DNA of 32,000 nt from the NCBI RefSeq assembly GCF_000014265.1, contig NC_008312.1, positions 990,001-1,022,000 on the forward strand. The letters are read 5' to 3'. This DNA comes from Trichodesmium erythraeum IMS101 (GTDB lineage Bacteria > Cyanobacteriota > Cyanobacteriia > Cyanobacteriales > Microcoleaceae). Position numbers and translations under genes: made by a program. Below the pieces are notes generated by a model. That model was not told the DNA's origin, made no database searches, and saw nothing but the letters and a program-made list of their open reading frames with translations. Positions 9,151 to 32,000 of the stretch are shown here, piece after piece (position 1 is the first letter of the stretch; every line of letters begins with the position of its first letter).

Positions 9151-9719
9151 AAGAGAAAATTAAGTTAATTAATAAATATTCGGAAAATCAACTGCCAATT
9201 CGCTATTGGTGTCAAGACGAGACTAGAATTGGATTAAAAACTATAACAGGTAAAGTCATTACTGCTTGCGGTGTTAAGCCCATTGGTTTATATCAATGGC
9301 TATTTAAATATCTATGGCTTTATGGTTTAGTAGAACCAAAAACAGGAGATTCCTTTTTTTATGAATTTAGTCATCTAGATACTCCTTGCTTTGAAAGATT
9401 TTTAGAGCTTTTTTCTCAAACATATCCTGAAGAGATTCATATTATTCAACTAGATAACGGGCGAGGGCATCTAGGGAATGATTTATCTATCCCTGATCAC
9501 ATCATTTTATTATTTCAACCTCCTTATTGTCCCGAAGTTAATCCCATTGAAAGACTGTGGAAAGAGGTGAAAAAATTCTTGAAAAATCGAGTTTTCGATT
9601 CCTTAGATTTCTGACGCAGAATCCTGAGAAATATATTAACTGGATTTAGTCAAAAAGATATTGCTTCTTGTACAGGATATGATTTTATTCTTGAAGCATT
9701 ATGTGTAGTCGGACTTTAG
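9129..9719 (+). pseudogene. IS630 transposase DDE part (orfB), reached by -1 shift, interrupted by premature stop
   Basis: The -1 frame from A_AAA_AAC (9129-9135) reads KKLSSQLEEKIKLINKYSENQLPIRYWCQDETRIG...NPIERLWKEVKKFLKNRVFDSLDF, then TGA (9612), then RRILRNILTGFSQKDIASCTGYDFILEALCVVGL and a stop. Confidence 0.75.
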
Positions 9720-9869
9720 GAAATTGGTATTAATAAAAATTGATATTATCAAAAATTATTATCATTTATTCAACTAGAAGTTGAAATTATTAAAAACAAC
9801 TAGACAAAAAACTATAAAAAAAGAGAAAAAGCCTTTTTTAAGAGGGTAGAAAGGTTGATTACTAAAAAA

Positions 9870-11150: not shown

Positions 11151-12048
11151 TAAAAATATTCTGCTGGAGTGTCATGTTAGCCTACTTTTCTGTACATTTT
11201 TTGTACATTATATATACCTGGTTATTAGTCTATTTTAGCTGAAAATTGGATACTATTTCTGATTAAAAATATCTAAAATTATTATTGTGTAATTTTTTGA
11301 GATTTATTCAGCAAACCCTAATTACTTTAACTAGACAGTAATATACAATTTGGTAGCATTGGTATAATTAGATAGTTAGTTAAACTCATCACTCAAAACT
11401 AAAAACTCACAAGTCAGGAGGAAAAAAAACTTAGTAATATTTGAAGGCTGGGCTGAATATGAAATATTTTTTCACACCAAATTAAGCGGATTTGATAGGA
11501 TTTTATAAAATCATTTTACATATTACATATATAGTTTATTTGAAAAATATTTGTAATATTATTCTTACAATTAGTAAAACATAGTTGTTTTCATAAATTC
11601 ATAAATAGTTAACAGGATATTTGATATGAATATTAATTTTTAATTGGGAAAAAAATTACTACTTGTCAAATAAATAAGAAGAAAGAGATAGTAATTAGCT
11701 CGTAGGCTGTCACAATTAAAAAAACTATAAATTTAAATTAACTCCGAAACTGGTATTATTTTGTTCCGCAATTCTCTAAAAAGCCAAACCAAAAATTAGC
11801 AATATAGGTGGAAAGTATAAAAATAAGATTGTTATAGTCGTGATAATGACTGTTGTGATCTACTTAAATTATTTGATGGTAGGTTTCGTTACTTAATTGC
11901 GTAAATAACTAAATGTTATTCCTTCTGTAATTGTGTTATTCACAGCAATAATTTTACTTTCAACTTACTTTCGGACTAATTCTATATTTATATGGTTAAC
12001 TATAATGTTTATATTCTATTCATTAGTACAATAAATTGCTAAATAAAG

Positions 12049-14481
12049 ATGTCTCAAGAAAAAAAATATTGGCAAATCCTGAGTTCCAATCATCCACCTT
12101 ATTCATTTATTGAATCTTTCAAAAGCTATGTACCAGAATTATCGGGAAAATATCTAGCACAATTATTATGGCAACGTGGAATTAAAAATCCTGAAGATAT
12201 AGCATCATTTTTAGATCCGAAACAATATAAACCAGCTAGTTTTTCAGCATTTGGCTCAGAAATTAATAATGCCGTAGCAAGAATTATTTCTGCTAGAAAT
12301 AATCAAGAAAAAGTTGCTATCTGGGGAGATTTTGATGCAGATGGGATTACGTCAACATCTGTACTATGGGATGGATTAGGAGAATTTTTAGATAAAATAG
12401 ACCAACTAACTTATTATATTCCTAATAGGTTTACAGAATCTCATGGTTTGAATTTTTCTGGAATAGAAAGGTTAGCTAAAAAAAATTATAGTTTGATAAT
12501 TACCTGCGATACAGGTAGTACAAATATTGCCGAAATAGAATATGCAAATAGTTTAGGTATAGATATAATTGTTACTGATCATCATACTATTCCCACAAAA
12601 CGCCCACCGTTATTTGCTATTATTAATCCTCGCTATTTTTCTCAAGATCATCCCCTATATAATTTATCTGGAGTTGGAGTAGCTTATAAGCTTATAGAGG
12701 CACTTTATTTAACTCATCCGGAAATACCTCAACTTCCCCTAACAGAATTATTAGATTTAGTAGCTATTGGTTTAATTGCAGATCTAGTTGAACTAAGAGA
12801 TGACTGTCGTTATTTAGCACAAATAGGTATTGAAAAATTAAGGACACAATTACACAAAACTACCAGGCCAGGAGTTGCTAAACTTTTAGAATTGTGCCAA
12901 AAAACAGGCGATCGCCCTACAGATATTTCTTTTGGTATTGGCCCTCGAATTAATGCTGTAAGTAGAATTATGGGAGAGGCCAGTTTTTGTGTGGAACTAT
13001 TGACAAGTCGTAACCCTCAACATTGTCAAAAACTAGCGTTACAAACAGAGTTGGCTAACTCTAGGCGCAAGTCTCTAGAAAAAGAAGTAGCTAAAGATAT
13101 TGCCCAAAAATTGACAAAACTAGACCTTTCTACGACTCATGTCATAGTTCTGAGTGATCCTCAATGGCCTGTTGGTGTGCTAGGATTAGTGGCAGGCCAA
13201 ATAGCTCAAAAGTATGGTCGTCCTACTATTTTATTTAGTGAGGAAACTGAAGTTACTAAAACTTCTGAAAAAAAATTATTAGCTCGCGGTTCTGCCCGTT
13301 CTGTTGGTAATATAAATCTTTATGAGTTGGTGAAAAATCAAGCACATTTGTTACATAATTTTGGCGGTCATCCTTTTGCTGCTGGTCTGAGTTTACCAGT
13401 AGAAAATATTTCAATATTTACAGATGCTATTAATCAGTTATTGGGAGAAATATTAGGGGTCACTTTTAACCAAACCTCAGTAATAGAAGTAGATTTAATT
13501 ATCACTGTATCTGAGTTAGGTAGAGATTTATTTCAAGAACTAAAGCTTTTGGAACCCTGTGGTATGGGAAACCCGGTGCCTAAACTTTTAATTCAAAATT
13601 GTTGGTTTACTGATATTTGGCATCAGAACCAAACAGACATGGAGGGAAATAAAGTCAGATATATTAAAACAAATTTTGAAATTTGCGATAAGTCTATAGA
13701 TAAAGGGTTTCCTGGTATTTGGTGGGGTCATTATAAGGAAGAAATTCCTGAAGAAATATGTGATGCTGTTCTAGAATTAGATTTCAATGCTAAAAAAAAA
13801 TGTTATGAAGCTCGACTTATTGCTGTACAACCCAATTCCCAAGATAGTCAAGTCGTAGCATCGAACACCGTAAATTGGATATTAGACTGGCGCAATAATA
13901 GTCAACCTCTTTTTGAAAATAAAAACTCAAAGTTCCTAAATAAAAATTATAGTGACACGAATGAATCTAAGTTATCCCTTCGCGAAAATGAAAAAGACTT
14001 AATTGTTCTTACCCAATGTCCCACAAACTGGAATGATTTACGCATCTGGTTCCGACGAGCAATAAATCAACAAAAAAAACTAGCGATCGCTTACTCCCAA
14101 CCTTTTATTACCCACCCTCTACAAATCTGGCAACAACTTCTGGGAATTGCCAAATATCTTAGCCGTACAGGTCAACCTGTAACTCCTGATCAATTGGTAA
14201 AAAAGTTAAGTATTAGTGATACTACTCTTAAATTAGGTTTAATAGCATTACAATATTTTGGATTTAATGTCAAGTATAAAGATAAATATTTTTACATTAT
14301 TCAGAGTCAAAGCCAAAATCAAAAATTAGAAACTTTATCCCAAACAGTCCAAAAGTTCCTCGCAGCAGTATCAGAAGAACAATTTAGGGAAAAATACTTT
14401 TGTGAAGTGCCCCTAAAAATAATAGAAGCGATCGCAATTCAAACAATTTTAGAAGATGCTAATAGTTCTATTCCCTTCTAG
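12049..14481 (+). CDS. recJ: Single-stranded-DNA-specific exonuclease RecJ (with long C-terminal extension)
   Basis: 810-aa ORF. DHH-family motifs: VAIWGDFDADGITS, IITCDTGS, IIVTDHH, GLIADLV. DHHA1 motif: GGHPFAAG. Confidence 0.9.
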   Translation: MSQEKKYWQILSSNHPPYSFIESFKSYVPELSGKYLAQLLWQRGIKNPEDIASFLDPKQYKPASFSAFGSEINNAVARIISARNNQEKVAIWGDFDADGITSTSVLWDGLGEFLDKIDQLTYYIPNRFTESHGLNFSGIERLAKKNYSLIITCDTGSTNIAEIEYANSLGIDIIVTDHHTIPTKRPPLFAIINPRYFSQDHPLYNLSGVGVAYKLIEALYLTHPEIPQLPLTELLDLVAIGLIADLVELRDDCRYLAQIGIEKLRTQLHKTTRPGVAKLLELCQKTGDRPTDISFGIGPRINAVSRIMGEASFCVELLTSRNPQHCQKLALQTELANSRRKSLEKEVAKDIAQKLTKLDLSTTHVIVLSDPQWPVGVLGLVAGQIAQKYGRPTILFSEETEVTKTSEKKLLARGSARSVGNINLYELVKNQAHLLHNFGGHPFAAGLSLPVENISIFTDAINQLLGEILGVTFNQTSVIEVDLIITVSELGRDLFQELKLLEPCGMGNPVPKLLIQNCWFTDIWHQNQTDMEGNKVRYIKTNFEICDKSIDKGFPGIWWGHYKEEIPEEICDAVLELDFNAKKKCYEARLIAVQPNSQDSQVVASNTVNWILDWRNNSQPLFENKNSKFLNKNYSDTNESKLSLRENEKDLIVLTQCPTNWNDLRIWFRRAINQQKKLAIAYSQPFITHPLQIWQQLLGIAKYLSRTGQPVTPDQLVKKLSISDTTLKLGLIALQYFGFNVKYKDKYFYIIQSQSQNQKLETLSQTVQKFLAAVSEEQFREKYFCEVPLKIIEAIAIQTILEDANSSIPF

Positions 14482-16728: not shown

Positions 16729-17014
16729 AGAAATTATGACTTAAGTAGATCGAGTAGATCGGAAGTATTCGGTAACTCCCCAAAACTTGATTAAGGGCGT
16801 TGCGCAATTACGAATGATTAGGATAATTGAGGAATTTGCGTATCTTTCAAATAGAGCAAAGTGCGCTGGTGTATTTACAATTTTTGTTAATGAGGGCCTA
16901 TTTTAAAGGGTTTGGACTGTAAATATGCCTAAGCTCACTTCTATAGTAGATCAGGAAAGAAACTGCCAATTCTCAACATATCAATTGACTTGGAGTAGCA
17001 TAAAGTTTTGCGAT

Positions 17015-17147
17015 ATAATATCAAATCCGTTGGTTTCGGGGTAATATAATTCCTATTGTCATTAAGGACAAACGGTTGCTCATTCCTAGAATTTCAACTT
17101 ATTACTCCTCAATATGGAATTATACCAATGCTACCGGGTTTGATATA
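17015..17147. repeat. MITE-like element copy 1 (~133 nt) bounded by TATCAAATCCG-type inverted termini
   Basis: The left end ataatatcaaatccg (17015-17029) is identical to 20806-20820. The right end ctaccgggtttgatat (to 17146) is the imperfect inverted complement and matches ctaccggatttgata at 20925-20939. Confidence 0.5.
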
Positions 17148-17829
17148 AAAAACCCACACCATCTGTCTTAAACGGTAGTATTCTTCTACTCAAGGACTTA
17201 CCCAAAGGCACTATATATAGTGCATGACAATTTTGACGATATACACTGTTTTAAATGGTATTTTCTTATAGTTTATAGCCATTTTATATCATTTATTAAA
17301 CACTTTTTTATTTTTATTTTTTTGTCAGTATCTGGTATAAACTGCATAATATATAATCCATAATTGTTCATTCCTTGATTAAAATATATACAATTAACTA
17401 TTCCAAGACCCACTAACTTCACAGCTAATATAAAGCAAATAACTTGATGTTCATTACCACTATATTGTCATGGTATACGCTGAATATTATACCCATATTT
17501 TTTATTAATTACTGTGTCATAAAATATTAAATAAGCTGCTGTATCTGTACAAATTCTTATTGAACATTTCCCCAGTTTTTCTTGTGAATTTAAAGACTAA
17601 TATCTTAAATAACGGTTTATTGTATCTATGGCTAATATTTTCCCTCTGGGTTTGCTAAGGAGCATTATTGTATAATTCTTGTGATATTTAAGTAAATATT
17701 GACGAGTTACAACAAACATTAAAATCCATGTTTTCTTGCAACTAATATAATCATGTCATTATTGTTTAATAATTAAGGATTTTTAGCAAATCCATTTAAC
17801 AAATGTAACCTGATTTTAATATATATTAA

Positions 17830-18430
17830 AAGTAATATCTATGCGAAAAAAACTAATTATAGTATTGACAATTTCATTTTGGCAGTATACCAGATATAGC
17901 TTACCTGCGTAAGTCCTGTACTCTTGTCATCGCTGTTTTGCTGGCCTGGTGGTTACAATCATCTTATAAGCAAGGATAAAAGAATACGCGTCAGAGTTGG
18001 TGGAATCATCTGCCTATGCCTTATAAGTGTGAAGTTAACAGCGGAGCGATCGCCTATCACCAACTTCAAAATTCCTGGCATTTGGCTATTTACAACTGTC
18101 CAGACCCAAATTGATATTTTTTTTTAGCTCACGCGCATTTTAAAGTTCATTAAGAGTAAGCAGTTTCAGGATCTCAAACTTCTTTAGTTTTAATATGTAC
18201 TTAGTACAAGCTCTACCCAGTTAAGCACCGTCCAAGAAGGAAATATCAGTCACTCTCTCAATGGCTCGAAATTCCATGGCGTTAAAGGAGATTTATAAAC
18301 AAAGCTCTTTAAAATCATAACTATAACCGATAGGACAAAAGTTTTCTCACCCATTGACGGCCACACTCACGACACAAATAACTCTGTTTTTCCTGATAAA
18401 GGCCATTGTGCCTACTTTATGGCTTTAACA
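17830..18430 (-). pseudogene. Decayed IS1-like transposase remnant
   Basis: Reverse-strand translation gives QSYLCRECGRQWV (Zn-finger region), then GYSYDFKELCL.ISFNAMEFRAIERVTDIS (HTH region), then KKISIWVWTVVNSQMPGILKLVIGDRSAVNF. Frameshifts and stops separate the pieces. The pattern matches cyanobacterial IS1-family transposases as I remember them. Confidence 0.45.
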
Positions 18431-18805
18431 ATAAGGACTATCTATTTCTCAATAAAATTATAGAATATCATTTTTTCCACGATCCAATACCCTTTTCTTT
18501 TTAAGGAAAGGTAATTAGGGCTTCCTAATTAAATCCCAAAGCATTAACTAATATTTACGAAACGCTTTTTTTTTGCATTTAAAAAGTACTTGGTATCATC
18601 TTCAAAACTTTTACATAAGTTAGAATTTTGGGCAGAATGATTGTGGAGGGCCGTAAGGGACAAATATCTCCGACTATCTCCACCTCCTATATGATTCGAC
18701 CTTCCTCTGTACAGATTTTGTATGCAAAGTCTTTACCTACTCCCCTACTTTTTAATAAGAGCAAACCCTCATTAATTCTTGCTGACTATGGCAGTTTTCA
18801 TTACT

Positions 18806-18900
18806 CAAAAATGCAGAGATATTAGCTTAAAGCCAGAAGGCAGATAGCAGAAGTTTTGTAGTACAAAAGTGAAAACTATCCTTCGTTTAACTCTCAAAGC
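18806..18900. repeat. Dispersed intergenic repeat, copy B (partner at 6604)
   Basis: caaaaatgcagagatattagcttaaa, followed by gccagaaggcagatagcagaag, then agtgaaaac and taactctcaaa, collinear with copy A. Confidence 0.6.
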
Positions 18901-18980
18901 ATTGACATATTGTATCTTTAGACTTTTGAAATTAAAAATTTGCAAGCTGTCTACGAATACCCACTGTAGAAAAACTTTAG

Positions 18981-19018
18981 GGAATTGGGAATTAGGAATT
19001 GGAAATTGGGAGGAATTG
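18981..19018. repeat. Degenerate heptamer tandem repeat (GGAATTG family), STRR-like
   Basis: Reads ggaattg ggaatta ggaattg gaaattg ggaggaattg. Confidence 0.7.
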
Positions 19019-19326
19019 ATGTGAGAAAAGTATTTTTACTAGAGCTAATTAATGAAACTTGATATTAATCAGGTGTGAATGAGACTCACACACTAAAAAA
19101 ATCGGCAAATTTTGGTCAATTTCCCTCATCTTCCCCACTCGGATACATCATTAACTTATAATACTTTGAAACAGCCATGCTAATTATTAAGTATTAATTG
19201 TTATATCAATTCATAAAAATAATGCTATACTTTCCTAAGGTTTTATTTATTAAGTAATAAGTAACCAAGAACAATGTTTTTTAGGATTTGTAGGCATAAA
19301 GTGTAAAGATATCTTATGCGGTCGAA

Positions 19327-19347
19327 CCCTACTCCCTACTCCCTACT
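19327..19347. repeat. Perfect 3 x CCCTACT heptamer repeat immediately upstream of the kinase gene start
   Basis: Reads ccctact ccctact ccctact, ending 9 nt before GTG 19357. Confidence 0.85.
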
Positions 19348-19356
19348 AATTAGATC

Positions 19357-21269: not shown

Positions 21270-21488
21270 TTAATCCTCTTCCCAAGCTTCTACAGCTAAT
21301 AGTTCACTAATTGGATCTTTCATAGAAAAACCAAACTCTTCTAGTTCTTTTTTCCAATAAACCCATTTATCTCCAAAAAGTAGAGCTATCTTCCAGATAC
21401 TATCTGTTGGCTTAATTATGTTAGATTCCCGAAGAGAATTTACCTGACGTTGGAGTTTATCCATCGGGTGTATGACCTGTTGGCTCAT
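21270..21488 (-). CDS. Hypothetical small protein (72 aa)
   Basis: ORF with an AAGAGG Shine-Dalgarno-like motif 5 nt upstream of the ATG (reverse complement of cataatacctctt at 21486-21498). I recognise no family. Confidence 0.4.
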   Translation of the reverse strand: MSQQVIHPMDKLQRQVNSLRESNIIKPTDSIWKIALLFGDKWVYWKKELEEFGFSMKDPISELLAVEAWEED

Positions 21489-22705: not shown

Positions 22706-23788
22706 CTAAAAATCAGTTAACAATCTAAGTTTTCTGAGAACAAAAGTTAGCACGGTCTCTTGGGAAGAAATAATATCAGCTCGACCTTCCATTCCTGGTT
22801 GAATCAGATATTGACTACCGCCTTTGACTAAGTAAGGTTTTTCAGGTTCTATAGTGACCTCATAATAAGCTTCTTTAAGTACTTGATGAGCGATAGCATC
22901 TGGAGAAATTGAACGTACAGTTCCTTTGAGAATACCATAATCAGGAAAAGGATAAGCTGAAACTCGAATTTGTACGGGTTGACCTATTTTTACTTTGGCA
23001 ATATCTGCTGCTGTCACCCTAGCCTTAAATACTATATGCGCGTTGTTAGGGACTATCTGAGCGATCGCTGCTCCTGATTCGACAGTTTGCCCAGGATTAC
23101 GCAAAGATAACTTAAATATAGTACCATTTGCAGGAGCAATGATTACACTATTATTAAGTTTAGCATTTACCTGTTCTAGTTCTCTGTTACCAGCAGTCAA
23201 TTCTTTAATTAATTCGGTTCGCTTAACTATCAGGTCCCGTCTATCTTTAGCAAACTGTTGAGCAACTTTAGGCAAAGATAAGGATAGCTCTAAAATAGCT
23301 GACTCAATAGATGATTTATCTATCTTATTATTTTCTGCTATGGTAAATTGTGACTGATACTGAAAAGTTTGAGGTCTAGCAGTAGCTAAGATTTGAACCT
23401 CTAAAGCAGATATTTGTTGATTAATTTGCTCTAATTCTATGTCGCACTGTTGGATTTTTTCTTGTAGTTGAGTTTTTTGACGACTCAGAGCAGATTCATC
23501 TATGCGTGCGATCGCATCTCCTTCATGAACTACTTGGTTTTCATTTACTTCTATACTGTCAATTTTACCCTCTGTAGGTGCTTGAACAATTCTTACGTCT
23601 CCTATTGGTCGAGCAATAGCTTCTGTTCTCACAGTAGGGTTATACTTTACTAGGCTAATTAGGGCAATAGCTGCACCAAATGTACCCAATAAGAACATTC
23701 CACCTATCTTATTCCAACGACTCATAGGAGGGAGAAATTCATCACTTTCTAAGGGTTGTACTTCTGTAGAATCAAAATTATTAAACAT
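22706..23788 (-). CDS. HlyD-family secretion adaptor (membrane fusion protein) for the peptide exporter
   Basis: 360-aa ORF. N-terminal TM (IGGMFLLGTFGAAIALISLV), a lipoyl-like hairpin (VQAPTEGKIDSIEVNENQVVHEGDAIARID), a long coiled coil, APANGTIFKLSLRNPGQTV, and C-terminal PGMEGRADIISSQETVLTFVLRKL. Confidence 0.9.
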   Translation of the reverse strand: MFNNFDSTEVQPLESDEFLPPMSRWNKIGGMFLLGTFGAAIALISLVKYNPTVRTEAIARPIGDVRIVQAPTEGKIDSIEVNENQVVHEGDAIARIDESALSRQKTQLQEKIQQCDIELEQINQQISALEVQILATARPQTFQYQSQFTIAENNKIDKSSIESAILELSLSLPKVAQQFAKDRRDLIVKRTELIKELTAGNRELEQVNAKLNNSVIIAPANGTIFKLSLRNPGQTVESGAAIAQIVPNNAHIVFKARVTAADIAKVKIGQPVQIRVSAYPFPDYGILKGTVRSISPDAIAHQVLKEAYYEVTIEPEKPYLVKGGSQYLIQPGMEGRADIISSQETVLTFVLRKLRLLTDF

Positions 23789-24548
23789 AATTTATTTTTA
23801 CTTACTAAAATAATTTTTTTGAGGCTAAATTGAGAGATGAATATTAAGTTTAGATAGTTACTTACTAGACTGACACATATTTAATATTGCGTTACGACAA
23901 ATTTTTAAATACCTTTGGTAATCTAAATTTTAGGTTTAAATATACACTCTACAAGCTTGGCACTAAATTAGCTGTATTACTCCACCAGAATGTGTCATGG
24001 TCAATGAGCTTATATAAAATACAAAAAATTGTGCTAAGCTCCGAATGTCATCCGGAACCCTATAAATTTTTGGTAGCACATATTAAGACCAATTTCCATG
24101 TATTAATACTATACTTAGATAGCACTTCAGTTACTACATGATTAACACCAAGGGAATAATCTTTTTGCATGATAAACATTCTCTGATTATGTTAATTTGA
24201 TAAATTTTGTACGAAAATTGCATACAACATTTTTACCCATAATACTCTTAATTCACTATTAAATTTTGATATTTACTATCGGCAATTTGGCAAAAAATAA
24301 GTAAAAAATGCTATCAAAGCCTTATATAGTAATTGTTTTATACTTAATTAATTTGTTTGCTAATTGATATTATTTATCTACGTTTCAGCCATTTTTAGCA
24401 ACAGCTACTTATTTCCCTTGCCTCTATTAGCAATGACAGGAATTTTCACTATAAAAAATGTCAAAGTACTGCTATAAGTTATCTTACTTACCTATTTTTT
24501 ACTTTCTAGCATAGGGAATTATTGAGCTTAGGAGTTATTTTGTAAGTG

Positions 24549-24556
24549 ATCCGGAT
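24549..24556. promoter_or_regulatory. ATCCGGAT palindrome, distal copy upstream of precursor 1
   Basis: Exact 8-nt palindrome. It is one of only four in the window, all in precursor-gene upstream regions. Confidence 0.35.
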
Positions 24557-24630
24557 AAATTTAAAAATTGCAGAAATTAGGATTAAAGTTAATATTCAAA
24601 AGAAGGTGATTAATTATAGAAGTTAGAAAA

Positions 24631-24638
24631 ATCCGGAT
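24631..24638. promoter_or_regulatory. ATCCGGAT palindrome 108 nt upstream of precursor 1 start (24746)
   Basis: Exact palindrome. A TATAAA -10-like hexamer lies about 20 nt downstream. Confidence 0.4.
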
Positions 24639-24745
24639 ACTGTAGGTTATTTGGGAAGTATAAACTCAACTTCCTTCAGAAGTTAAAGAAATCAGCAAAG
24701 ATTACTATTATTTTATGAGAACTATTAACCATGAGGAAGCTGATC

Positions 24746-24961
24746 ATGCAACAATCTCAAAAACAGCAACTTTTTACAGAATTAAACTTAGAAGAATCTA
24801 TTATAATCAATGGTGGTTATAATGAAAATTATAAATATCATCGTAGTTTTTTAGGCTTTCAACTTTGCCCTCGCAGTAATTACAATTATAACCGTTATTC
24901 TCCTAACAATAAACGTTATAATTATAACTACTATAAGGGGAATACAAGAGGCTATTACTAA
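24746..24961 (+). CDS. Double-glycine-leader precursor peptide 1 (Tyr/Asn-rich core)
   Basis: Leader MQQSQKQQLFTELNLEESIIINGG aligns with the three paralogs. GAGGAAG SD-like motif 8 nt upstream of ATG 24746; the ORF track's 24731 start adds 5 unconserved residues. 47-aa core YNENYKYHRSFLGFQLCPRSNYNYNRYSPNNKRYNYNYYKGNTRGYY (12 Tyr, 10 Asn). Confidence 0.75.
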   Translation: MQQSQKQQLFTELNLEESIIINGGYNENYKYHRSFLGFQLCPRSNYNYNRYSPNNKRYNYNYYKGNTRGYY

Positions 24962-27052
24962 TTAAAATTATTCTTATTTTACTACTGAAAACCTATTAGT
25001 TAAGGTTAATTGCTGACTACTCAATGATTACTTTTGACTCCCAGGGACATTAACAAAAATCCTGTGATAGCCTAAGTTAATTTTTAACATTCTTTTTTCA
25101 CTCTTGGTATATACTAAACATAATATTGCTTAAAGTTGCTCAATCCCCAAACCTTCCTGATAGATTACTATTGCCTTTTGGCTTTTGACTTTATCATAGG
25201 GTTATATTATACCATTAAAAAAAAGAATAAAAAAAAGAATATTACGAAAAATTCTAAGTAGTTATACAAAATTAATTACACATACTTTCAAGCTAAAAAG
25301 CATATATTTCCTGTAATTTGGGAATAAATAATGGAAATTAATTTTGTATAGACAATTTTTACCTCTATGACTTTTATAGTTTATTTCTAGTATTTTTACA
25401 TAATAATTATGAAAGTTTTAGCTATATAAAATCAGGAATATCTTCGTAGATATAGCAATCCTAAATAGGTTGTAAAAATATAATTGCAAAAATAATATCT
25501 CTACTTCACTAGACAAAAAAATGAAGATTATAGATAAAATAGATAATTTTATACTTTAGAAAAAAAATCCTAAAGAAACAACAATAGCTTTAGTATTAAA
25601 AATGATTTGGTGAGTAAATACTCTTATAAAAACACCAATAATTATTAAAGGTTTCTCACAGTTTATAGATCTGAAATAAAAAAAATTAGCACTTTTTATA
25701 GCCCTATAAATTTTAATAATTTAGCTATATTTTTTTAAAAAACCACATTAATTTAAGTAAAAAAAGAGGAACCAATTTCTGGGTATTGAGCAAAAAAATA
25801 TTTTAGAATATCAGGCTTAAAAAACTATTTACAACAAACAATTTAATGTAGTTTTTAATTCGCATAAAAGTTATTATAATGACTATGAAAAAGATGTTTA
25901 TTCATTGAAATAATTCCCCAACCAAGAATTATACTAAAAATGATTAATTTGTGAAAGCAAAAAAAGTTAGAGAGGATAAATTGGCAAAATAGCAACGAGA
26001 AATAGAAACTATAAAGCTGGCTATGTTTATGATTAAGGAATGTTATATCTTATGAAAAGACTTTTGAGTTTATGGTTGGGTACCAATAGATAAAAGAATA
26101 AAAAATCCACTCACAAATGAAAAAAAATCTACTTATTCTGGCGTCTTAAACTACCAAGCCCCATAATTTATTGATGTTAAAAAGAAGTGGAAATACTGAA
26201 AATACTATGAAAAATATTTAACTATTTACAGCAGCCAAGGCAGGGAAAAAATGAGCAATATTTGGGGATAGAAGCACTGATAATAATTTGAGATAATTTT
26301 GATAATATTTAATGACAAAAAATAGCTAAAAAAACCGAAGGATAATGGTGAATAAATTGTATAAAATTTTCTCCGAATACCCCGGAGTAAAACCCCGTTA
26401 AAAATATTTAGTCACAAGGTAAAAATTTCATCGGACAATTTAATCATCTTTGCAGTTATTTGAAAATAGTTAATTTATTTGAAGTTTTTTGCACTCTGGT
26501 CAAATATTCGACTTTCCCCAACTTTTTAAGTATTAAATTGTACCACAACCAATACACGAAATGTTATGAGTAGTTAAGATGAATCTAAATATAGAACACT
26601 CTCTAGTTTAAATTAAAATAAAAATATATTTTTAGTAAAAATTAATGGGATAAAAATGACAATAAAAAGACAAGTTATTGTTCAAAAAACATAAACAGAA
26701 GTTTTTGTACTAAAAAAATAGAGAAGGTTACTTAATAATTAAAATTACACCCAAGTATAGCATTCTTTATTCACAGTTATTATAAAACTGTATCTCATAG
26801 ATTAAATGAATACTATTATCTTAATTTATAAATATTTAAAAGAAACATAAAAATAGAAAAGAAAAGCAGATAAATTTTGTAAATAAAACTCTTTATTTTA
26901 ATATCAATAAATATTTAAATCTAGTCATGATATGGTCTAATTTTTGGAAATCATTATGACTGAAAATACTATAAATAAATATTGATTTTTTTTATTTATA
27001 TGTTTTATTACAATAATAATTACTTAATTAAAAAATATTTGGCTAAGTATTT

Positions 27053-27060
27053 ATCCGGAT
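27053..27060. promoter_or_regulatory. ATCCGGAT palindrome (TATCCGGATA) 100 nt upstream of precursor 2 start (27160)
   Basis: Exact palindrome, extended to 10 nt. Confidence 0.4.
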
Positions 27061-27159
27061 ATTACTAAACACTTAGGAATAATGAATTGTAATTCCCAGT
27101 AGTCAACATAAATTATTAAAGGTTACTAATGTAGTTAATTAAGGTTAAGGATAATTTTT

Positions 27160-27384
27160 ATGCAAGAAAGACAAGAAACAAAAAATAATCAACTTTTTAC
27201 TGATTTTTCTACTGAAGAATCTGCTACTATTAATGGCGGCCATAGATATTATGGTAGTAACAGTCATCGCGGTTATTACAGTTATGGCTATCGTAATTAT
27301 TATCCTCGTTATTATCGTCGATCTGTACGTTACTATTCCCATTCTTCCTACTCCTATAATCCCTACCATCACGGCTGTTACTAA
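27160..27384 (+). CDS. Double-glycine-leader precursor peptide 2 (Tyr/Arg/Ser/His-rich core)
   Basis: Leader MQERQETKNNQLFTDFSTEESATINGG. AAGGA lies 9 nt upstream. 47-aa core HRYYGSNSHRGYYSYGYRNYYPRYYRRSVRYYSHSSYSYNPYHHGCY (16 Tyr, 7 Arg). Confidence 0.8.
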   Translation: MQERQETKNNQLFTDFSTEESATINGGHRYYGSNSHRGYYSYGYRNYYPRYYRRSVRYYSHSSYSYNPYHHGCY

Positions 27385-27487
27385 TTAAAAATTTTTCATA
27401 GTAGTTTTCTCCTGATTAATTGAAAAAAAGTAATTTTTTTAGTATTTTTTTATCTGCCATTTATGAGAATATAATCAGGAAAAAAAT

Positions 27488-27495
27488 ATCCGGAT
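27488..27495. promoter_or_regulatory. ATCCGGAT palindrome 96 nt upstream of precursor 3 start (27591)
   Basis: Exact palindrome. TATAAT hexamers lie about 36-50 nt downstream. Confidence 0.4.
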
Positions 27496-27590
27496 GCTAG
27501 AAATAAATAAAGAATAATAGATAGGAATTTATAATATATTTATAATTTTTTAACTATCTTATAAACCCAAATAAAACAGAGGATAGTCTT

Positions 27591-27803
27591 ATGCAAAAAA
27601 CTCAAAAAAGCGAACTATTTTCTAACCTTTCTTCTGAAGAATCTGGCACTATTAATGGTGGTCATTATTATAATAATAATTACGATTATAGTCGCTCTGT
27701 ACGTTACTATCATCGTCCTATTAGCTACCACTATCGTAGCTATAGCTACTATTATAGTCGCCCTGTCAGTTATAGCTACGGAGGCTATTATTATTGCGAC
27801 TAA
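27591..27803 (+). CDS. Double-glycine-leader precursor peptide 3 (Tyr/Ser/Arg-rich core)
   Basis: Leader MQKTQKSELFSNLSSEESGTINGG. GAGGA lies 8 nt upstream. 46-aa core HYYNNNYDYSRSVRYYHRPISYHYRSYSYYYSRPVSYSYGGYYYCD (17 Tyr). Confidence 0.8.
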   Translation: MQKTQKSELFSNLSSEESGTINGGHYYNNNYDYSRSVRYYHRPISYHYRSYSYYYSRPVSYSYGGYYYCD

Positions 27804-27940
27804 AAGTTAATGTAAAAATCAAAAAAATCTCCTGAAGCTTCACCTGATAAAAAGAATAATCTATTACAAATCATCAGATAGTTTCGTAAACAAATATAAC
27901 TTAAACGACCTTATTGATTAAATTATATTTAAGGAAAAAA

Positions 27941-28180
27941 ATGATGCAAAACACTCAAAATAAAGAGCTATTTTCTGATATTTCGACTGAAAACTCTGCC
28001 ACTATTAATGGTGGTCATGGTTGTGTTTGTCATAACTATAGATCCAGTCGCATTGTAAATTATGGCTATGGTCGTGGCGACTATTATTATGTTCATTATA
28101 ATCGTCCTATACGTTATGGCTATCGTCCTAGTGGTTATCGCTACAGTTATGTTAACTATTCTGATAGAGGATGTTACTAA
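27941..28180 (+). CDS. Double-glycine-leader precursor peptide 4 (Tyr/Arg/Gly-rich core with three Cys)
   Basis: Leader MMQNTQNKELFSDISTENSATINGG. AAGGA lies 7 nt upstream of ATG 27941; the track start 27914 adds unconserved residues. 54-aa core HGCVCHNYRSSRIVNYGYGRGDYYYVHYNRPIRYGYRPSGYRYSYVNYSDRGCY (14 Tyr). Confidence 0.8.
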   Translation: MMQNTQNKELFSDISTENSATINGGHGCVCHNYRSSRIVNYGYGRGDYYYVHYNRPIRYGYRPSGYRYSYVNYSDRGCY

Positions 28181-28230
28181 AAGCGATATTATGGTGAGAT
28201 TATAACTTTAATTAGTATTTCATTAAACTC

Positions 28231-28267
28231 GGCACCTGTAGATTTATAGGTGTCTTTTTCTGATTTT
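28231..28267 (+). terminator. Candidate intrinsic terminator/attenuator between the precursor genes and the exporter gene
   Basis: Stem ggcacctgta / tataggtgtc (8-10 bp including G-U pairs), GATT loop, followed by tctttttctgatttt. Confidence 0.5.
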
Positions 28268-28347
28268 ATTGTTTGTTAATAGAAAGAATTATTTGGTATA
28301 TCAAAATTAATCAGTATAGTTATTTTTAAATTAAAAATTAAGTTATT

Positions 28348-30558
28348 ATGTTAGACATTGTACCAATACCAATATTACCAAAAGCATCTACTGAACGTAA
28401 AATAAATAACTTTAATAAATATCCAATAATTCTTCAACAAAGTGAGGAAGATTGTGGAGCTGCTTGTTTAGCTTCTATTGCTAAATATCATGGTCGTATT
28501 TTAACAATTAATCGGATTAGAGAAATAATAGGTACTAATCAACAAGGAACTACATTATTAGGTTTAAAACAAGGTGCAGATACTATCGGTTTTAATGCTA
28601 GGTCTGTGAAAGCTAATCCAGAAATTTTAAATCAAATTGACCGTGCTCCTTTACCAGCAATTATTCATTGGCAAGGTAATCATTGGGTAGTTTTATATGG
28701 CAAACAAAGTGATAAATATGTAATTGCTGATCCTGCTATTGGGATTCGTTTTTTGTCAGAAAAAGAATTAGCTGAAGCTTGGGAAGATTGGATTTGTTTA
28801 TTAACAGAACCTGACCCAAAACGTTTTTTTTCTGAGGCTGATGAAAAAGTTAGCAATATTAGCAGATTACTCAGACGAGTTTGGTATTATCGCCAAATTA
28901 TTGTTCAGGTATTTTTGTTGAATATTGTCTTAGGTTTACTTTCTATTGCTTCTCCTTTCTTGGTGCAAATTTTAACTGATGATGTTCTAGTTCGGGGTGA
29001 TTTTCAGTTACTTACTAGTGTAGTAATTGCTGTAATTATCATGAATATTTTTAGTAGTTGTCTGGAGTTAGTTCAATCCAATATGATTTCCCATTTTGCC
29101 CAACGTTTAGAGTTAGGAATAGTAATGGAATTTTGCAGACAAATTTTACGTTTGCCATTAAATTATTATGAGACACGACGTAGTGGTGAAATTATTAGTA
29201 GACTGACAGATATTAAAGAGATTAATCAATTATTTTCTCAAGTAATTGTGAGTTTACCTAGCCAATTTTTTATTGCTTTAGTCTCTTTAATTTTTATGTG
29301 TATCTATAGTTTTTCTCTGACTATAGTTGCTATTTTTATGGCAGTAGTTATGACATTATCAACTATTGCTTTGTTACCGATATTACAGCAAAAAACTAAA
29401 AATTTATTGGCTTTAGAAGCAGAAACTCAGGGTGTCTTAGTAGAAACTTTTAAGGGGGCAATGACTCTTAAAACTACCTCTAGTTCTCCTCAGTTTTGGG
29501 AAGAATATCAAGGTAGGTTTGGCAAGTTAGCTAATTTGAGTCTTAGAACTACTCAGATTGGGATTGTAAATGATGTATTTTCAGGTTTAATTAGTAATAT
29601 TGGTAATATTTTTATGTTGTGGTTTGGCAGTAATTTAGTTATCGCTGAACAATTAAGTATTGGTCAGTTATTAGCTTTTATTGCTATGAATCAATATGTA
29701 TCAAGCTTGGTGAGTACATTGGTAGGATTGATGGATGAATTAACAAAAGTTCAGACTGCTACTAGGCGACTTTCAGAAGTCATTAATTATCTTCCAGAAA
29801 CGGATGGAAAGCATCAAAAACCGGAGGCTAAAATTAAGGATAATGATGATATTATTTGCTCTAATATTAGCTTTCACTATGCTGGTAGAATAGATCTATT
29901 AGAAAACTTTTCTGTGAGGTTTCCTGGTAGCAAGTCTATTGCTTTAATTGGTGAATCTGGCTGCGGTAAAAGTACAATTGCTAAATTAATTGCTGGTTTA
30001 TATCCAGTCAAATCTGGTAATGTTCAAATTGGCATTTATAATTTGCAGGATTTAGATATAAATTCTCTGAGAAAGCAAGTTGTATTAGTACCTCAAGATG
30101 CTCATTTTTGGAGTCGTTCAATTATTGAAAATTTTTATTTAGCAGCTCCGGGAGTAACATTTGAAAAAATTGTTAAAGCTTGTCAAATTTCTGGTGCTGA
30201 TGAATTTATTAGTTGTTTGCCTAATAAATATCAAACAGTTTTAGGAGAATTTGGAGCCAATATTTCTGGGGGTCAAAGGCAGCGTTTGGCAATAGCTAGA
30301 GGTATTGTTAATGAGCCACCTGTATTAATTTTGGATGAGTCAACTTCTGGTTTAGATCCGATAGCTGAGTCTGAAGTTTTGGAGAGATTATTGTCTTATC
30401 GTCGGGGTAAAACTACTATTTTTATTAGTCATAGACCTAGGGTAATTAGTAGGGCTGATTGGATTATTTTATTAAATCGTGGCCAGCTAGAATTGCAAGG
30501 TTCTCCGGCATCTTTACGGGCAAAACATGGTAATCATTTAGATTTTTTGAATCCTTAA
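28348..30558 (+). CDS. Peptidase C39 domain-containing ABC transporter (double-glycine leader-cleaving peptide exporter)
   Basis: 736-aa ORF. C39 domain with catalytic Cys in QQSEEDCGAACLASIAKYHG and His in GNHWVVLYG. Six-helix TMD. Walker A GESGCGKST, signature ISGGQRQRLAIARG, Walker B VLILDESTSGLD, H-loop ISHR. Confidence 0.92.
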   Translation: MLDIVPIPILPKASTERKINNFNKYPIILQQSEEDCGAACLASIAKYHGRILTINRIREIIGTNQQGTTLLGLKQGADTIGFNARSVKANPEILNQIDRAPLPAIIHWQGNHWVVLYGKQSDKYVIADPAIGIRFLSEKELAEAWEDWICLLTEPDPKRFFSEADEKVSNISRLLRRVWYYRQIIVQVFLLNIVLGLLSIASPFLVQILTDDVLVRGDFQLLTSVVIAVIIMNIFSSCLELVQSNMISHFAQRLELGIVMEFCRQILRLPLNYYETRRSGEIISRLTDIKEINQLFSQVIVSLPSQFFIALVSLIFMCIYSFSLTIVAIFMAVVMTLSTIALLPILQQKTKNLLALEAETQGVLVETFKGAMTLKTTSSSPQFWEEYQGRFGKLANLSLRTTQIGIVNDVFSGLISNIGNIFMLWFGSNLVIAEQLSIGQLLAFIAMNQYVSSLVSTLVGLMDELTKVQTATRRLSEVINYLPETDGKHQKPEAKIKDNDDIICSNISFHYAGRIDLLENFSVRFPGSKSIALIGESGCGKSTIAKLIAGLYPVKSGNVQIGIYNLQDLDINSLRKQVVLVPQDAHFWSRSIIENFYLAAPGVTFEKIVKACQISGADEFISCLPNKYQTVLGEFGANISGGQRQRLAIARGIVNEPPVLILDESTSGLDPIAESEVLERLLSYRRGKTTIFISHRPRVISRADWIILLNRGQLELQGSPASLRAKHGNHLDFLNP

Positions 30559-30820: not shown

Positions 30821-32000
30821 ATGACTATAGCTAATCCTATTAAAAAGGTTAACCAACTACTTCGGGAAAGAAAATTTGATGATGCTTTTAAAGAGTGCCA
30901 AAAATCTATAGAAGTAAACCCTAATTTTTCCTGGAATTATTACTATTTAGGAAAAATATTAGCTGCACAAAATAAATGGCAAGAAGCACTTATCCAATAT
31001 GAAGAGGCAGTTAAAATCAATCCTAACTCTGCAACTTTTTACTATAGCTTGGCTAAAACTTTAAGACATCAAGGTCAATTAGATGAAGCAATTAAATATC
31101 TAAAAATAGCTATTTCTCTAAAAAATAATGTGATTATTTATCAACAAACTCTAGCTGAAGTTTATGAAGTTAAGTTTGATTTTGTGGGCGCATTTAAAAT
31201 TTGGCAAGAAATTATTGCTATTAATTATAATCATCCTGTAGCAACAAAAAAAATTCATTGGTTACGAACAGATATTGTTAGAGATTTTGTCGAGAATGGG
31301 GATAAGTTAAATAAGGAAGGAAAAATCAAGGAGGCTGTTAATTTTTACCAGCAAGCATTAACTATAAATTCCCAACAGCCTATGCCTATTTATCGTAATT
31401 TTGGGAATAATTTAATTACTTTAGGTAAATTTGAGGAAGCAGAAACGGTATTTAAGCAATTAAAAGAAATGTATCCAGAGCTAACAGATGGTTATGAGGG
31501 TTATGCAAGGTTAACTCATAGTTTAGGGAATTGGGAGTTGGCATTAAAGCGTTGGGAAAATGCTATAGAAAAGTTTCCAGAAAATATCGGTTTTCAAACT
31601 CAGAAAGGCAATATGTTGATAAATTTGTCTCGGTTTGATGAGGCAGAATCAGTTTTTCAAAGTTTAAAAGAAAAGTTTCCTCATCAACCTCAAGGTTACG
31701 ATGGTTATGCCAGATTAACTCATAGTTTTGCTGATTGGAACTTGGCTTTGAAGCGTTGGGAAAATGCTATAGAAAAGTTTCCAGAACATATCGGTTTTCA
31801 AACTCAGAAAGGCAATATATTAATAAATTTATCTCGGTTTGATGAAGCAGAATCAGTTTTTCAAAGGTTAATAGAAAAGTTTCCTCATCAACCTCAAGGT
31901 TACGATGGTTATGCCAAATTAACTTATCGTTTTGCTGATTGGAACTTGGCTTTGAAGCGTTGGGAAAATGCCATAGAAAAGTTTCCAGAAAATATCGGTT
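30821..32000 (+). CDS. TPR-repeat protein (5' partial; runs off the window end)
   Basis: Open frame from ATG 30821 to the window edge; it is absent from the ORF track because no stop is reached. TPR-like 34-aa units, e.g. NYYYLGKILAAQNKWQEALIQYEEAVKINPN and FYYSLAKTLRHQGQLDEAIKYLKIAISL. Confidence 0.8.
   Translation, partial: MTIANPIKKVNQLLRERKFDDAFKECQKSIEVNPNFSWNYYYLGKILAAQNKWQEALIQYEEAVKINPNSATFYYSLAKTLRHQGQLDEAIKYLKIAISLKNNVIIYQQTLAEVYEVKFDFVGAFKIWQEIIAINYNHPVATKKIHWLRTDIVRDFVENGDKLNKEGKIKEAVNFYQQALTINSQQPMPIYRNFGNNLITLGKFEEAETVFKQLKEMYPELTDGYEGYARLTHSLGNWELALKRWENAIEKFPENIGFQTQKGNMLINLSRFDEAESVFQSLKEKFPHQPQGYDGYARLTHSFADWNLALKRWENAIEKFPEHIGFQTQKGNILINLSRFDEAESVFQRLIEKFPHQPQGYDGYAKLTYRFADWNLALKRWENAIEKFPENIG
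31547..32000 (+). repeat. Near-identical 204-nt (68-aa, two-TPR) tandem repeat inside the TPR gene
   Basis: aagcgttgggaaaatgc(t/c)atagaaaagtttccagaa recurs at 31547, 31751 and 31955 with a period of exactly 204 nt. A more diverged unit precedes it from about 31340. Confidence 0.85.

Follow-up and report, generated by a model that had tools for sequence, protein, structure and literature searches.

A 32,000-nucleotide stretch of DNA from Trichodesmium erythraeum IMS101 (NC_008312.1, positions 990,001 to 1,022,000; here, the window) contains a locus in which four small genes for tyrosine-rich peptides lie between a gene for a HlyD-family adaptor and a gene for a peptidase-containing ABC transporter (PCAT). 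It is best explained as an export module of the double-glycine type termed “group III” in cyanobacteria, located on the chromosome and inherited vertically. The peptides, rich in Tyr and Arg and tipped with Cys, form a family that has no name, is so far known only from cyanobacteria, and has a conserved regulatory box upstream of its genes. By analogy with a biofilm system of a freshwater cyanobacterium, the peptides may be self-associating, matrix-binding molecules; this functional assignment is tentative and is weighed below against an antimicrobial and several less likely roles.

Four tyrosine-rich precursors and their probable exporter

The four precursors, designated A to D in the order of their genes, are 70 to 79 amino acids (aa) long, with leaders of 24 to 27 aa that end in Gly-Gly (GG) and cores of 46 to 54 aa. 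Peptide A (24746 to 24961, + strand) combines a 24-aa leader with a 47-aa core, YNENYKYHRSFLGFQLCPRS...KGNTRGYY, that is 26% Tyr, has one Cys, and would have a mature mass of ~6.03 kDa. Peptide B (27160 to 27384, +) has a 27-aa leader and a 47-aa core, HRYYGSNSHRGYY...PYHHGCY, with 34% Tyr (16 residues), 5 His, and a single Cys at the penultimate position. The 46-aa core of peptide C (27591 to 27803, +) follows a 24-aa leader, repeats the motif [SR]R[PS][VI][SR]Y, and reaches 37% Tyr; it has a Cys near its C-terminus and, in most orthologues, an N-terminal Cys as well. Peptide D, Tery_0624 (27944 to 28180, +, with a second in-frame ATG at 27941), carries a 54-aa core, HGCVCH...DRGCY, with 26% Tyr and three Cys, namely, an N-terminal CxC and a penultimate Cys. 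A 21-bp tandem duplication within the peptide D gene (28101 to 28143) encodes RPIRYGY/RPSGYRY, which suggests that the cores grow by duplication of 7-aa R-P-x-x-Y units. Each gene is preceded, 6 to 9 nt upstream, by a Shine-Dalgarno (SD) motif, GAGGA or AAGGA, that is conserved across species. For peptide A, an alternative upstream ATG is present at 24731; because the SD motif falls within the resulting extension, ATGAGGAAG, and because the relative L012 lacks the upstream ATG, 24746 is the likely start.

The leader common to the four peptides reads M-Q-..-L-F-[ST]-x-[LFI]-x-x-E-[EN]-S-x-x-I-N-G-G. Among these and 48 orthologues, Leu-Phe occupies positions −16/−15, Ile or Leu −12, Glu −8, Ser −7, and Ile −4, followed by Asn-Gly-Gly. 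This pattern has the hydrophobic residues at −4, −12, and −15 and the acidic residue at −8 that characterize double-glycine leaders, but position −7, which is usually hydrophobic, is Ser. The composition of the cores is unusual, with Tyr, Arg, Gly, and Ser predominating: 59 of the 194 pooled residues are Tyr (30.4%, 12 to 17 per core), against 3.3% in nine long open reading frames (ORFs) of the window (binomial tail, 8e-40). Cores B to D contain no Lys, Leu, Phe, Met, Trp, Ala, Thr, Gln, or Glu. The predicted isoelectric points of the cores are 9.0 to 9.7, the net charges +3 to +7, and the mature masses 6.0 to 6.6 kDa. Ile/Val-rich ORFs that overlap these genes in other frames are by-products of the TAT-rich coding frame. 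Searches of the four peptides against Pfam and NCBIfam gave no match at E values of ≤1 except a subthreshold one to ComC (E = 0.02), and the long NHLP/N11P leader domain (TIGR03793, TIGR03798) was not matched, the leader here being just 24 to 27 aa.

The export machinery flanks the peptide genes on both sides. The HlyD-family membrane-fusion (periplasmic adaptor) gene (22706 to 23788, − strand; 360 aa) is divergent from the peptide genes; its product matches Pfam HlyD_3 (PF13437; E = 6e-21) and the NCBIfam model TIGR01843, type_I_hlyD (E = 4e-47), in the latter case with 161 bits, under the curated cut-off of 208 bits. The PCAT gene (28348 to 30558, +) encodes 736 aa with a C39 peptidase (Peptidase_C39, PF03412; E = 1.9e-37), a transmembrane domain (ABC_membrane, PF00664; E = 1e-35), and an ATPase (ABC_tran, PF00005; E = 4e-28); the best NCBIfam models, TIGR03796 and TIGR01193, score under their curated cut-offs. 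The C39 match spans 129 of the 133 model positions, and the motifs EEDC36GAAC (Cys36), NHWVV, and ADP are present, so that the catalytic-type Cys and His are retained. No outer-membrane factor gene is present in the 32-kb window. Between the stop codon of peptide D and the PCAT start codon lies a terminator-like hairpin (28231 to 28254, +), a 10-bp stem followed by TTTTT. It was counted in favor of the export module, but its position alone is suggestive because a consensus scan gave 3 such sites in the region, against 2.5 expected.

Given the established behavior of such machinery and the conserved leader and catalytic motifs, it is very probable that the precursors are cleaved by the C39 domain after GG and exported through PCAT and HlyD, with a TolC-like channel encoded elsewhere. 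In the mechanism that we propose, four coregulated genes, each behind its own cassette of TCCGGA(T) box, GAATAAT as a −10-like element, inverted repeat, and SD motif, would encode the 70- to 79-aa precursors; the leader would dock on the C39 domain of PCAT and be cut off after Gly-Gly; and the 6.0- to 6.6-kDa core would leave the cell through PCAT-HlyD and the TolC-like outer-membrane partner. The mature peptides would probably remain unmodified, except for disulfides of the conserved terminal Cys.

A first-pass annotation of the window, made from the sequence alone, had described this anatomy, the shared leader ending in I-N-G-G with an SD motif at each ORF, the Tyr-rich basic cores with their missing residues, and the cleave-and-export reading; all of this, including the coordinates, was confirmed, as was its assignment of the GG leaders, the C39-ABC protein, and the HlyD protein. 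Its further claim that the peptides were undescribed has to be withdrawn. All four ORFs were listed in 2011 by Wang, Fewer & Sivonen (Table S3) as “group III” putative bacteriocin precursors of T. erythraeum IMS101 (CP000393), three of them (CDS31 to CDS33) as unannotated genes (PMC3140520). Peptides A, B, C, and D correspond to CDS31 (1014731 to 1014961), CDS32 (1017160 to 1017384), CDS33 (1017591 to 1017803), and Tery_0624 (1017941 to 1018180), respectively; the coordinates in Table S3 are those in the window plus exactly 990000. The gene content also agrees with group III as defined there, that is, HlyD, a short-type C39 ABC protein, and several GG precursors, without SurA, LanM, or a second ABC protein. 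However, the 2011 survey gives only size, isoelectric point, and charge, does not mention tyrosine, defines no family, and tested nothing (PMC3140520); furthermore, most group III cargos in it are NHLP, N11P, or other types, whereas none of those models fits the present peptides. Searching the literature for Tyr-rich double-glycine peptides of cyanobacteria brought up no description of the family.

Conservation of the peptides and of their upstream regions

A profile search of 5.8 billion proteins recovered 78 relatives, all annotated as “hypothetical”; those with a named source belong to Trichodesmium, Okeania, Dapis, and other Microcoleaceae. An index-free hidden Markov model search of 1.84 billion representatives (clusters at 50% identity) retrieved 89 clusters at E values of ≤1e-3. 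Nearly all of these have a leader of the type LFTELxxEESAxVNGG and cores rich in Tyr, Arg, Gly, and Cys, with YRP or RPV repeats and up to 48% Tyr; the named members are all cyanobacterial and “hypothetical” (Leptolyngbyaceae, Lyngbya, Limnospira, Kovacikia, and one other cyanobacterium). Some GG-leader cargos that are related through the leader or through PCAT are shorter (29 aa), with 2 to 4 symmetric Cys and a composition rich in Arg, Tyr, Val, and Phe, and look like Cys-stapled cationic hairpins. Examples are RRCFYVRVVRRVRRGFYWFYQYFWVIRCY from a Phormidesmis metagenome-assembled genome (MAG) and YRCFYVWASRRVCYWYGCFFRYVRVVRCY from Cyanobacteria bacterium FACHB-502 (among L076, 9493 to 9654, and proteins P0158 and P0135). 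A separate subfamily of related cargos joins a Tyr/Arg/Gly-rich N-terminal half to a C-terminal tail that is conserved as VNQTVNVNV(x)Y(N/D/E)D (L041, 2696 to 2953; L043, 985 to 1236; P0078, P0109, P0118, P0126, P0136, P0138, P0141, and P0144); the Trichodesmium peptides do not have this tail.

The loci around PCAT orthologues and around individual peptides were retrieved and rescanned for peptide genes, and four orthologous types emerged. Type A (YNENxQYRRSFLGFQLCPRS...YYKGNIRGYY) has one Cys, type B (HGYYGRY...YRRPVRYYSRRRYYGGCY) one penultimate Cys, type C (HYYDDCY...RPVSYHYRSYSYHYSRPVSYSYRGYYDCY) Cys near both ends, and type D ((H)GCGC...GYGRSVSY...RRGGCY) three Cys; type D is present in one to three copies per genome. 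At least nine other species-level genomes, from Trichodesmium, Dapis, and related Microcoleaceae, keep the four types in the order A-B-C-D between the HlyD and PCAT genes. The Okeania locus has broken into two parts, HlyD-A-B-C and D-PCAT, without loss of any of the four types; the HlyD gene, which is syntenic with the peptide genes in all relatives, has stayed with types A to C there. PCAT orthologues of 91 to 93% identity, in Dapis, Trichodesmium, and Okeania, have the same peptide family as cargo; PCATs that are 48 to 66% identical (Nostocales, Leptolyngbya, and other cyanobacteria) are accompanied by mostly unrelated GG cargos. The 48 cores, which cover all types, contain R-[PS]-[VI]-[SR]-Y 60 times in total; 38 of them have a penultimate Cys, and the N-terminal CxC is present in all 18 type D cores examined.

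Type A is the best-conserved type, with 34 invariant columns over 10 sequences and a distinct conserved hydrophobic patch, RSFLGFQLCPRS. Pairwise Nei-Gojobori estimates of dN/dS are 0.17 to 0.42 for its core and mostly 0.20 to 0.29 for its leader, that is, purifying selection. The type B leader is likewise constrained (0.07 to 0.23), and its core evolves fast; the leaders of types C and D are less informative, with few synonymous changes. Altogether, purifying selection was detected for all of type A and for most leaders of types B to D. Because orthologues recur in the same order and because of this selection, the peptide genes are not chance ORFs. The stable A-to-D set would favor a conserved functional set over a shuffling toxin arsenal.

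The second conserved element is regulatory. The window has four copies of a palindromic box, ATCCGGAT, where 0.25 would be expected (none of 100 shuffles reaches four), and all of them lie upstream of peptide genes: at −196 (24549 to 24556) and −114 (24631 to 24638) for peptide A, at −106 (27053 to 27060) for peptide B, and at −102 (27488 to 27495) for peptide C. The proximal box of type A is found at −111 to −115 in nine relatives, that of type B at −92 to −103, and that of type C at −112 to −115 in most relatives. Peptide D has a degenerate box, TCCTGAA, 114 bp upstream (27830 to 27836), followed by GAATAAT and a weakened copy of the inverted repeat described below; the type D genes of other species often carry the same variant or, more generally, TCC[GT]GA[AT]. 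Overall, a TCCGGA[TA] box precedes nearly every peptide start codon by 102 to 115 bp in ~10 related genomes. An extra TCCGGAA box is present in the intergenic region between HlyD and peptide A (24051 to 24057); relative to the HlyD start on the opposite strand, it is ~263 bp upstream.

When 27 upstream regions of type C and D genes are aligned, the box is followed ~20 nt further on by a conserved GAATAAT, then by an inverted repeat, ACAAGATAGTTAAA...TTTAACTATCTTGT, and finally by the SD motif GAGGA. Of the 9 pairs of the inverted repeat, almost every one is invariant and one is compensatory, and the energy is weak; the near-invariance leaves covariation silent, so that an RNA structure and a DNA operator are not separable here. 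A promoter scan returned 44 sites against 45.6 expected and is uninformative in such AT-rich DNA. Judging from these alignments, we infer that each peptide gene may have its own conserved cassette of promoter and 5′ untranslated region under a common regulator. A literature search found no mention of Tery_0623 to Tery_0626, and the text of the IMS101 primary-transcriptome paper does not include this locus.

Surroundings of the module

Conservation between HlyD and PCAT is limited to the peptide genes and the ~200 bp upstream of each. The spacer between peptides A and B (25004 to 26774), which is AT-rich (GC content, ~24%), contains no conserved ORF, no nucleotide similarity to any related locus, and no Rfam or tRNA match; the spacing of A and B across relatives varies from 0.4 to 2.2 kb. 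The idea that the 2.2-kb spacer hides an immunity gene or a noncoding RNA was rejected, there being no conserved ORF or similarity in the relatives. In Trichodesmium, Dapis, other Microcoleaceae, and Kovacikia, the locus and its flanks contain no conserved immunity-like membrane ORF, and the small ORFs at the loci of relatives are nonconserved or not membrane-like. A CPBP/Rce1-like multipass membrane protein is encoded directly upstream of the D-PCAT half-locus of Okeania sp. SIO2C9 (L005, 8615 to 9460, − strand); the gene is restricted to this one Okeania locus and is not found at the Trichodesmium, Dapis, or other Microcoleaceae loci.

Maturation enzymes typical of peptides that are ribosomally synthesized and then modified posttranslationally (RiPPs) are also missing. 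No class-defining maturase (LanM, cyclodehydratase, radical S-adenosylmethionine [radical-SAM] enzyme, or P450) was identified within 10 kb of the conserved module at the inspected related loci; the only radical-SAM gene noticed, in L008, is 8 kb away and not conserved. The first-pass statement that LanM, cyclodehydratase, and radical-SAM genes are missing from the module and its borders holds for this locus and for every relative inspected. Its broader claim that there is no modification enzyme, however, overlooked a gene directly past the exporter. This gene starts 262 bp beyond PCAT on the same strand and runs off the window (30821 to 32000, +, the 5′ part); its product comprises many tetratricopeptide repeats (TPRs) and a C-terminal family 2 sulfotransferase domain on the matching contig L001 (Sulfotransfer_2, PF03567; E = 1.5e-29; L001, 13334 to 15808). 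The enzyme carries the motifs IPKCACTT and VVVREPIKRFLSAF, which we take to be of the type that binds 3′-phosphoadenosine-5′-phosphosulfate (PAPS). Sulfotransfer_3 (PF13469), the TPST/RaxST type, was not matched at E values of ≤0.01, and a search of solved structures with the sulfotransferase domain gave only chance-level matches. Within the gene, positions 31490 to 32000 of the window hold 2.5 copies (92% identical) of a 204-bp tandem repeat, which amounts to two TPR units; because L001 has a run of N at the repeat (~13230 to 13333), the number of TPRs and the length of the gene are uncertain.

The linkage of the TPR-sulfotransferase across relatives was followed with separate N- and C-terminal queries. 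The gene is also found downstream of PCAT in L016, L080, and L082 and is absent from this position in L005, L006, L008, L010, L013, and L015. It appears intact only in IMS101 and L016: the L080 copy has one in-frame stop in the catalytic domain, L082/L083 have frameshifts, and the Okeania copy (L081), at an unlinked site beside a glycosyltransferase gene, has three stops. The peptide genes are intact in all lineages in which the enzyme is decayed or absent. For this reason, the TPR-sulfotransferase is not an obligatory partner of the peptides and is probably a neighbor rather than a required part of the system.

In L006 (Microcoleaceae MAG MO_207.B10), the only relative in which the upstream flank was examined, the module has the same neighbors, RecJ, PP2C, an FHA-kinase, and DUF4327. 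In Kovacikia, three such peptides and PCAT lie amid housekeeping genes, and the relatives likewise have housekeeping flanks. The DUF4327 gene of the window (21270 to 21488, −; 72 aa) lies between the FHA-kinase gene and HlyD, as it does in a related Microcoleaceae genome; a paralogue, Tery_2891, ranks in the top 20 primary transcripts of IMS101 by abundance, according to the primary-transcriptome paper. A 713-aa protein encoded at 764 to 2905 (+) has an N-terminal membrane segment and a Tyr/Pro/Ser-rich C-terminal repeat, (Q)YYSPAP(S/Q), derived from a 27-bp tandem repeat (4.8 copies, 2699 to 2824). It is a second Tyr-rich low-complexity sequence in the window and has no NCBIfam match. Finally, three kilobase-scale stretches, 9151 to 12048, 16729 to 19356, and 25004 to 26774, lack ORFs of ≥90 aa (the first lacks any of ≥50 aa), and Rfam and tRNA scans of the whole window gave no match. 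These stretches fit the unusually large noncoding fraction reported for the T. erythraeum genome (PMC4143802).

Possible functions of the exported peptides

Types A to D may jointly function as self-associating, surface- or matrix-binding cationic Tyr/Arg peptides, comparable to EbfG1-4/PteB of Synechococcus elongatus PCC 7942, rather than as independent pore-forming toxins; this is the reading we lean toward, as a tentative one. A matrix role is slightly favored over antimicrobial action, which is a close second, and both could coexist. The preference is based on the stable four-type set in fixed order without an immunity gene, on the conservation of composition while the sequence drifts, and on the lack of hydrophobic segments in the cores. 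Moreover, the odd Cys counts (one in A, one in B, and three in D) favor intermolecular disulfides. The hosts Trichodesmium, Okeania, and Dapis are colony- or mat-forming filamentous cyanobacteria, which also counts for a matrix role.

The first-pass annotation had named adhesion and matrix formation among several roles; by analogy, the suggestion appears plausible and has a precedent that was not cited there. EbfG1-4 are the S. elongatus group III precursors of the same 2011 table (PMC3140520, PMC4997328); EbfG1-4 are secreted via PteB and enable biofilm formation, and EbfG1-3 form amyloid (PMC4997328, PMC9981879). As in the present locus, four small precursors, there with GG or GA leaders, are encoded beside a PCAT, and three of the four were originally unannotated. 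The sizes are similar as well, with EbfG precursors of ~9 to 10 kDa and mature peptides of ~6 to 7 kDa compared with 70 to 79 aa and a predicted 6.0 to 6.6 kDa here. For EbfG, however, C39-cysteine-dependent secretion and a function in the matrix and biofilm, not in killing, were shown experimentally, whereas for the Trichodesmium peptides we infer a biofilm role. The cores differ, too: compared by the published hotspot motif rather than by direct sequence alignment, EbfG has the amyloid hotspot A-[FI]-N-I-[GS], whereas the present cores are Tyr/Arg/Gly/Ser-rich, cationic, and Cys-bearing and have no evident relationship to EbfG.

Several observations weigh against self-association. Similarity to EbfG is undetectable, and the amyloid hotspot is absent from the four cores. 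The dN/dS values of the B to D cores are commonly 0.3 to 1.2 and exceed 1 against the closest Trichodesmium relatives; these values rest on few sites. Such fast evolution also fits a toxin in an arms race. The leader-homologous relatives include lookalikes of disulfide-stapled cationic β-hairpin antimicrobial peptides (AMPs). The spacing of Tyr gives no consistent structural signal: alternation (YxY), considered as a general rule of β-strand amphipathicity, was dropped, being enriched in type D alone (z = +4.3) and depleted in type B, and in the window's own peptides, YxY spacing does not differ from that in shuffled sequences. AlphaFold2 models of the type D and type A precursors, built on 10-sequence alignments, have predicted local distance difference test scores of 43 and 48, respectively, and contain only a short leader helix; the lack of a fold in these two types was counted for self-association, but such low confidence is uninformative for short peptides with shallow alignments. 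Finally, the literature search returned no experimental or expression data on the peptide genes.

The strongest competitor, only slightly less probable, is that the peptides are AMPs similar to class II microcins or bacteriocins, directed against competing bacteria or grazers in the colony microbiome and acting by binding membranes or envelopes rather than through helical pores. The GG leader, PCAT, and HlyD are the canonical machinery of class II bacteriocins and microcins, and the locus was classed as a putative bacteriocin locus in 2011 (PMC3140520). Consistent with such a role are the array of multiple paralogues with fast cores and conserved leaders, the net charge, the conserved Cys near both termini of types C and D, and the position of a CPBP/Rce1-like protein, from a family that often confers bacteriocin immunity, next to peptide D in one Okeania genome. 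The likeness to class II microcins (MccV, MccE492, and MccAB1) extends to the short leader, the PCAT with a HlyD-type adaptor and TolC, the size below 10 kDa, and the few or no modifications, as is predicted here. Class II microcin loci, however, have an adjacent immunity gene and Gly/Ala/Ser-rich cores with hydrophobic segments, whereas the present locus has no conserved immunity candidate in Trichodesmium, Dapis, other Microcoleaceae, or Kovacikia, and its cores are ~30% Tyr and almost devoid of hydrophobic residues. The same four types also recur in the same order as a chromosomal set across genera, and the one flank examined shares the site, unlike strain-variable bacteriocin islands; furthermore, type A is clearly under purifying selection. 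The first-pass argument that the missing amphipathic helix speaks against antimicrobial action is weak, since hairpin-like, Cys-bridged, cationic leader homologues exist: YRCFYVWASRRVCYWYGCFFRYVRVVRCY and RRCFYVRVVRRVRRGFYWFYQYFWVIRCY resemble hairpins of the arenicin and tachyplesin type. Gly/Tyr-rich cationic AMPs are known in animals, such as the NLP peptides and caenacins of nematodes, next to the β-hairpins arenicin and tachyplesin. Type D and the Dapis paralogues are similarly cationic and rich in Gly, Tyr, and Arg, with GYGYG runs, and some cyanobacterial cargos are Cys-stapled with alternating Arg, Tyr, and Val; there is no homology, however, and the animal peptides are made via a signal peptide or propeptide. 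Killing and matrix roles can coexist, as in Acinetobacter, where class II microcins also self-assemble into biofilm fibers.

More doubtful is a physical elaboration in which the cargo, known from ~89 clusters and so far only from cyanobacteria, constitutes an unnamed class of secreted Tyr/Arg “sticker” peptides. These would self-assemble through pi-cation and aromatic contacts and intermolecular disulfides into an adhesive matrix phase on the anionic sheath, holding Trichodesmium filaments, and perhaps dust, in colonies. Type D would then be trivalent with respect to Cys, type C divalent, and types A and B monovalent, and the IMS101 TPR-sulfotransferase could tune the material by sulfating peptides or bound glycans.

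That sulfation is instead the core of the biosynthesis is improbable. The peptides would be sulfotyrosine RiPPs, with the IMS101 TPR array binding the precursors and the sulfotransferase O-sulfating some of their many Tyr before export, in the manner of RaxX-RaxST-RaxA-RaxB. In that Xanthomonas oryzae system, a GG-leader peptide is Tyr sulfated and then cleaved and exported by a PCAT and a HlyD-type membrane-fusion protein, and the sulfotransferase gene is a neighbor (PMC6637879). The same-strand position of the TPR-sulfotransferase just past PCAT, its recurrence there in L016, L080, and L082, its putative PAPS-binding motifs, and the common ability of TPR domains to bind peptides are consistent with such a scheme. 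Yet the enzyme is decayed in L080, L081, and L082/L083 or absent from six loci while the peptides stay intact, and its domain is Sulfotransfer_2 rather than the TPST/RaxST type. The known bacterial members of Sulfotransfer_2 sulfate glycans, and the Okeania copy lies beside a glycosyltransferase gene. RaxST, moreover, is a TPST-like enzyme that acts on one Tyr of one peptide, whereas here a TPR-fused family 2 enzyme would face four cargos of 12 to 17 Tyr each, and “DY” acceptor-like sites are present in just 15 of the 48 cores.

A role as secreted signals (pheromones or morphogens), conceivable above all for type A and modeled on ComC pheromones or the proposed HetC-dependent signals of Nostoc, is a degree less probable still. 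Quorum-sensing peptides are among the cargos of PCATs, and HetC, itself a PCAT, is tied to differentiation (PMC10986499). The subthreshold ComC match of the leader, the strong purifying selection and hydrophobic patch of type A, and the conserved upstream box, which suggests tight regulation, would agree with signaling, but four low-complexity cores of 46 to 54 aa that drift fast are atypical of receptor ligands, and no pair of sensor kinase and response regulator is conserved beside the module across relatives. Least probable is chelation of Fe, Cu, or Ni, or binding of dust at the colony surface, by His/Tyr/Cys-rich peptides with an N-terminal His or His-Gly-Cys-x-Cys. Mature B to D usually begin with His or Cys, D always has the N-terminal CxC, and B combines 5 His with its 16 Tyr. 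Tyr, His, and Cys bind metals well, and dust is collected by Trichodesmium colonies. Composition is the sole basis of this reading, however; no metal transporter or receptor is linked to the locus, and His content is not conserved between orthologues.

What is new here is the nature of the cargo family; the locus itself was cataloged in 2011, and the export machinery is ordinary. The composition, with 30% Tyr, a cationic character, and terminal Cys, is unlike that of characterized bacteriocins and resembles that of sequences that drive self-association. Trichodesmium contributes a large share of the new nitrogen of the tropical ocean, and its ecology depends on colonies, their surface microbiome, and the capture of particles, whereas the molecules that bind these colonies together or police their associates are poorly known. 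The module appears to be tightly regulated, and the conserved TCCGGA(T) box offers a handle for finding the regulator. An antimicrobial and a matrix role would both be novel findings. If the peptides prove to be antimicrobial, they would represent a new, nonhydrophobic microcin-like scaffold. If they prove to serve in the matrix or in adhesion, the EbfG paradigm would no longer be confined to a freshwater unicellular species but would reach marine filamentous cyanobacteria of global importance, and bacteria would provide an extracellular example of Tyr/Arg sticker chemistry.

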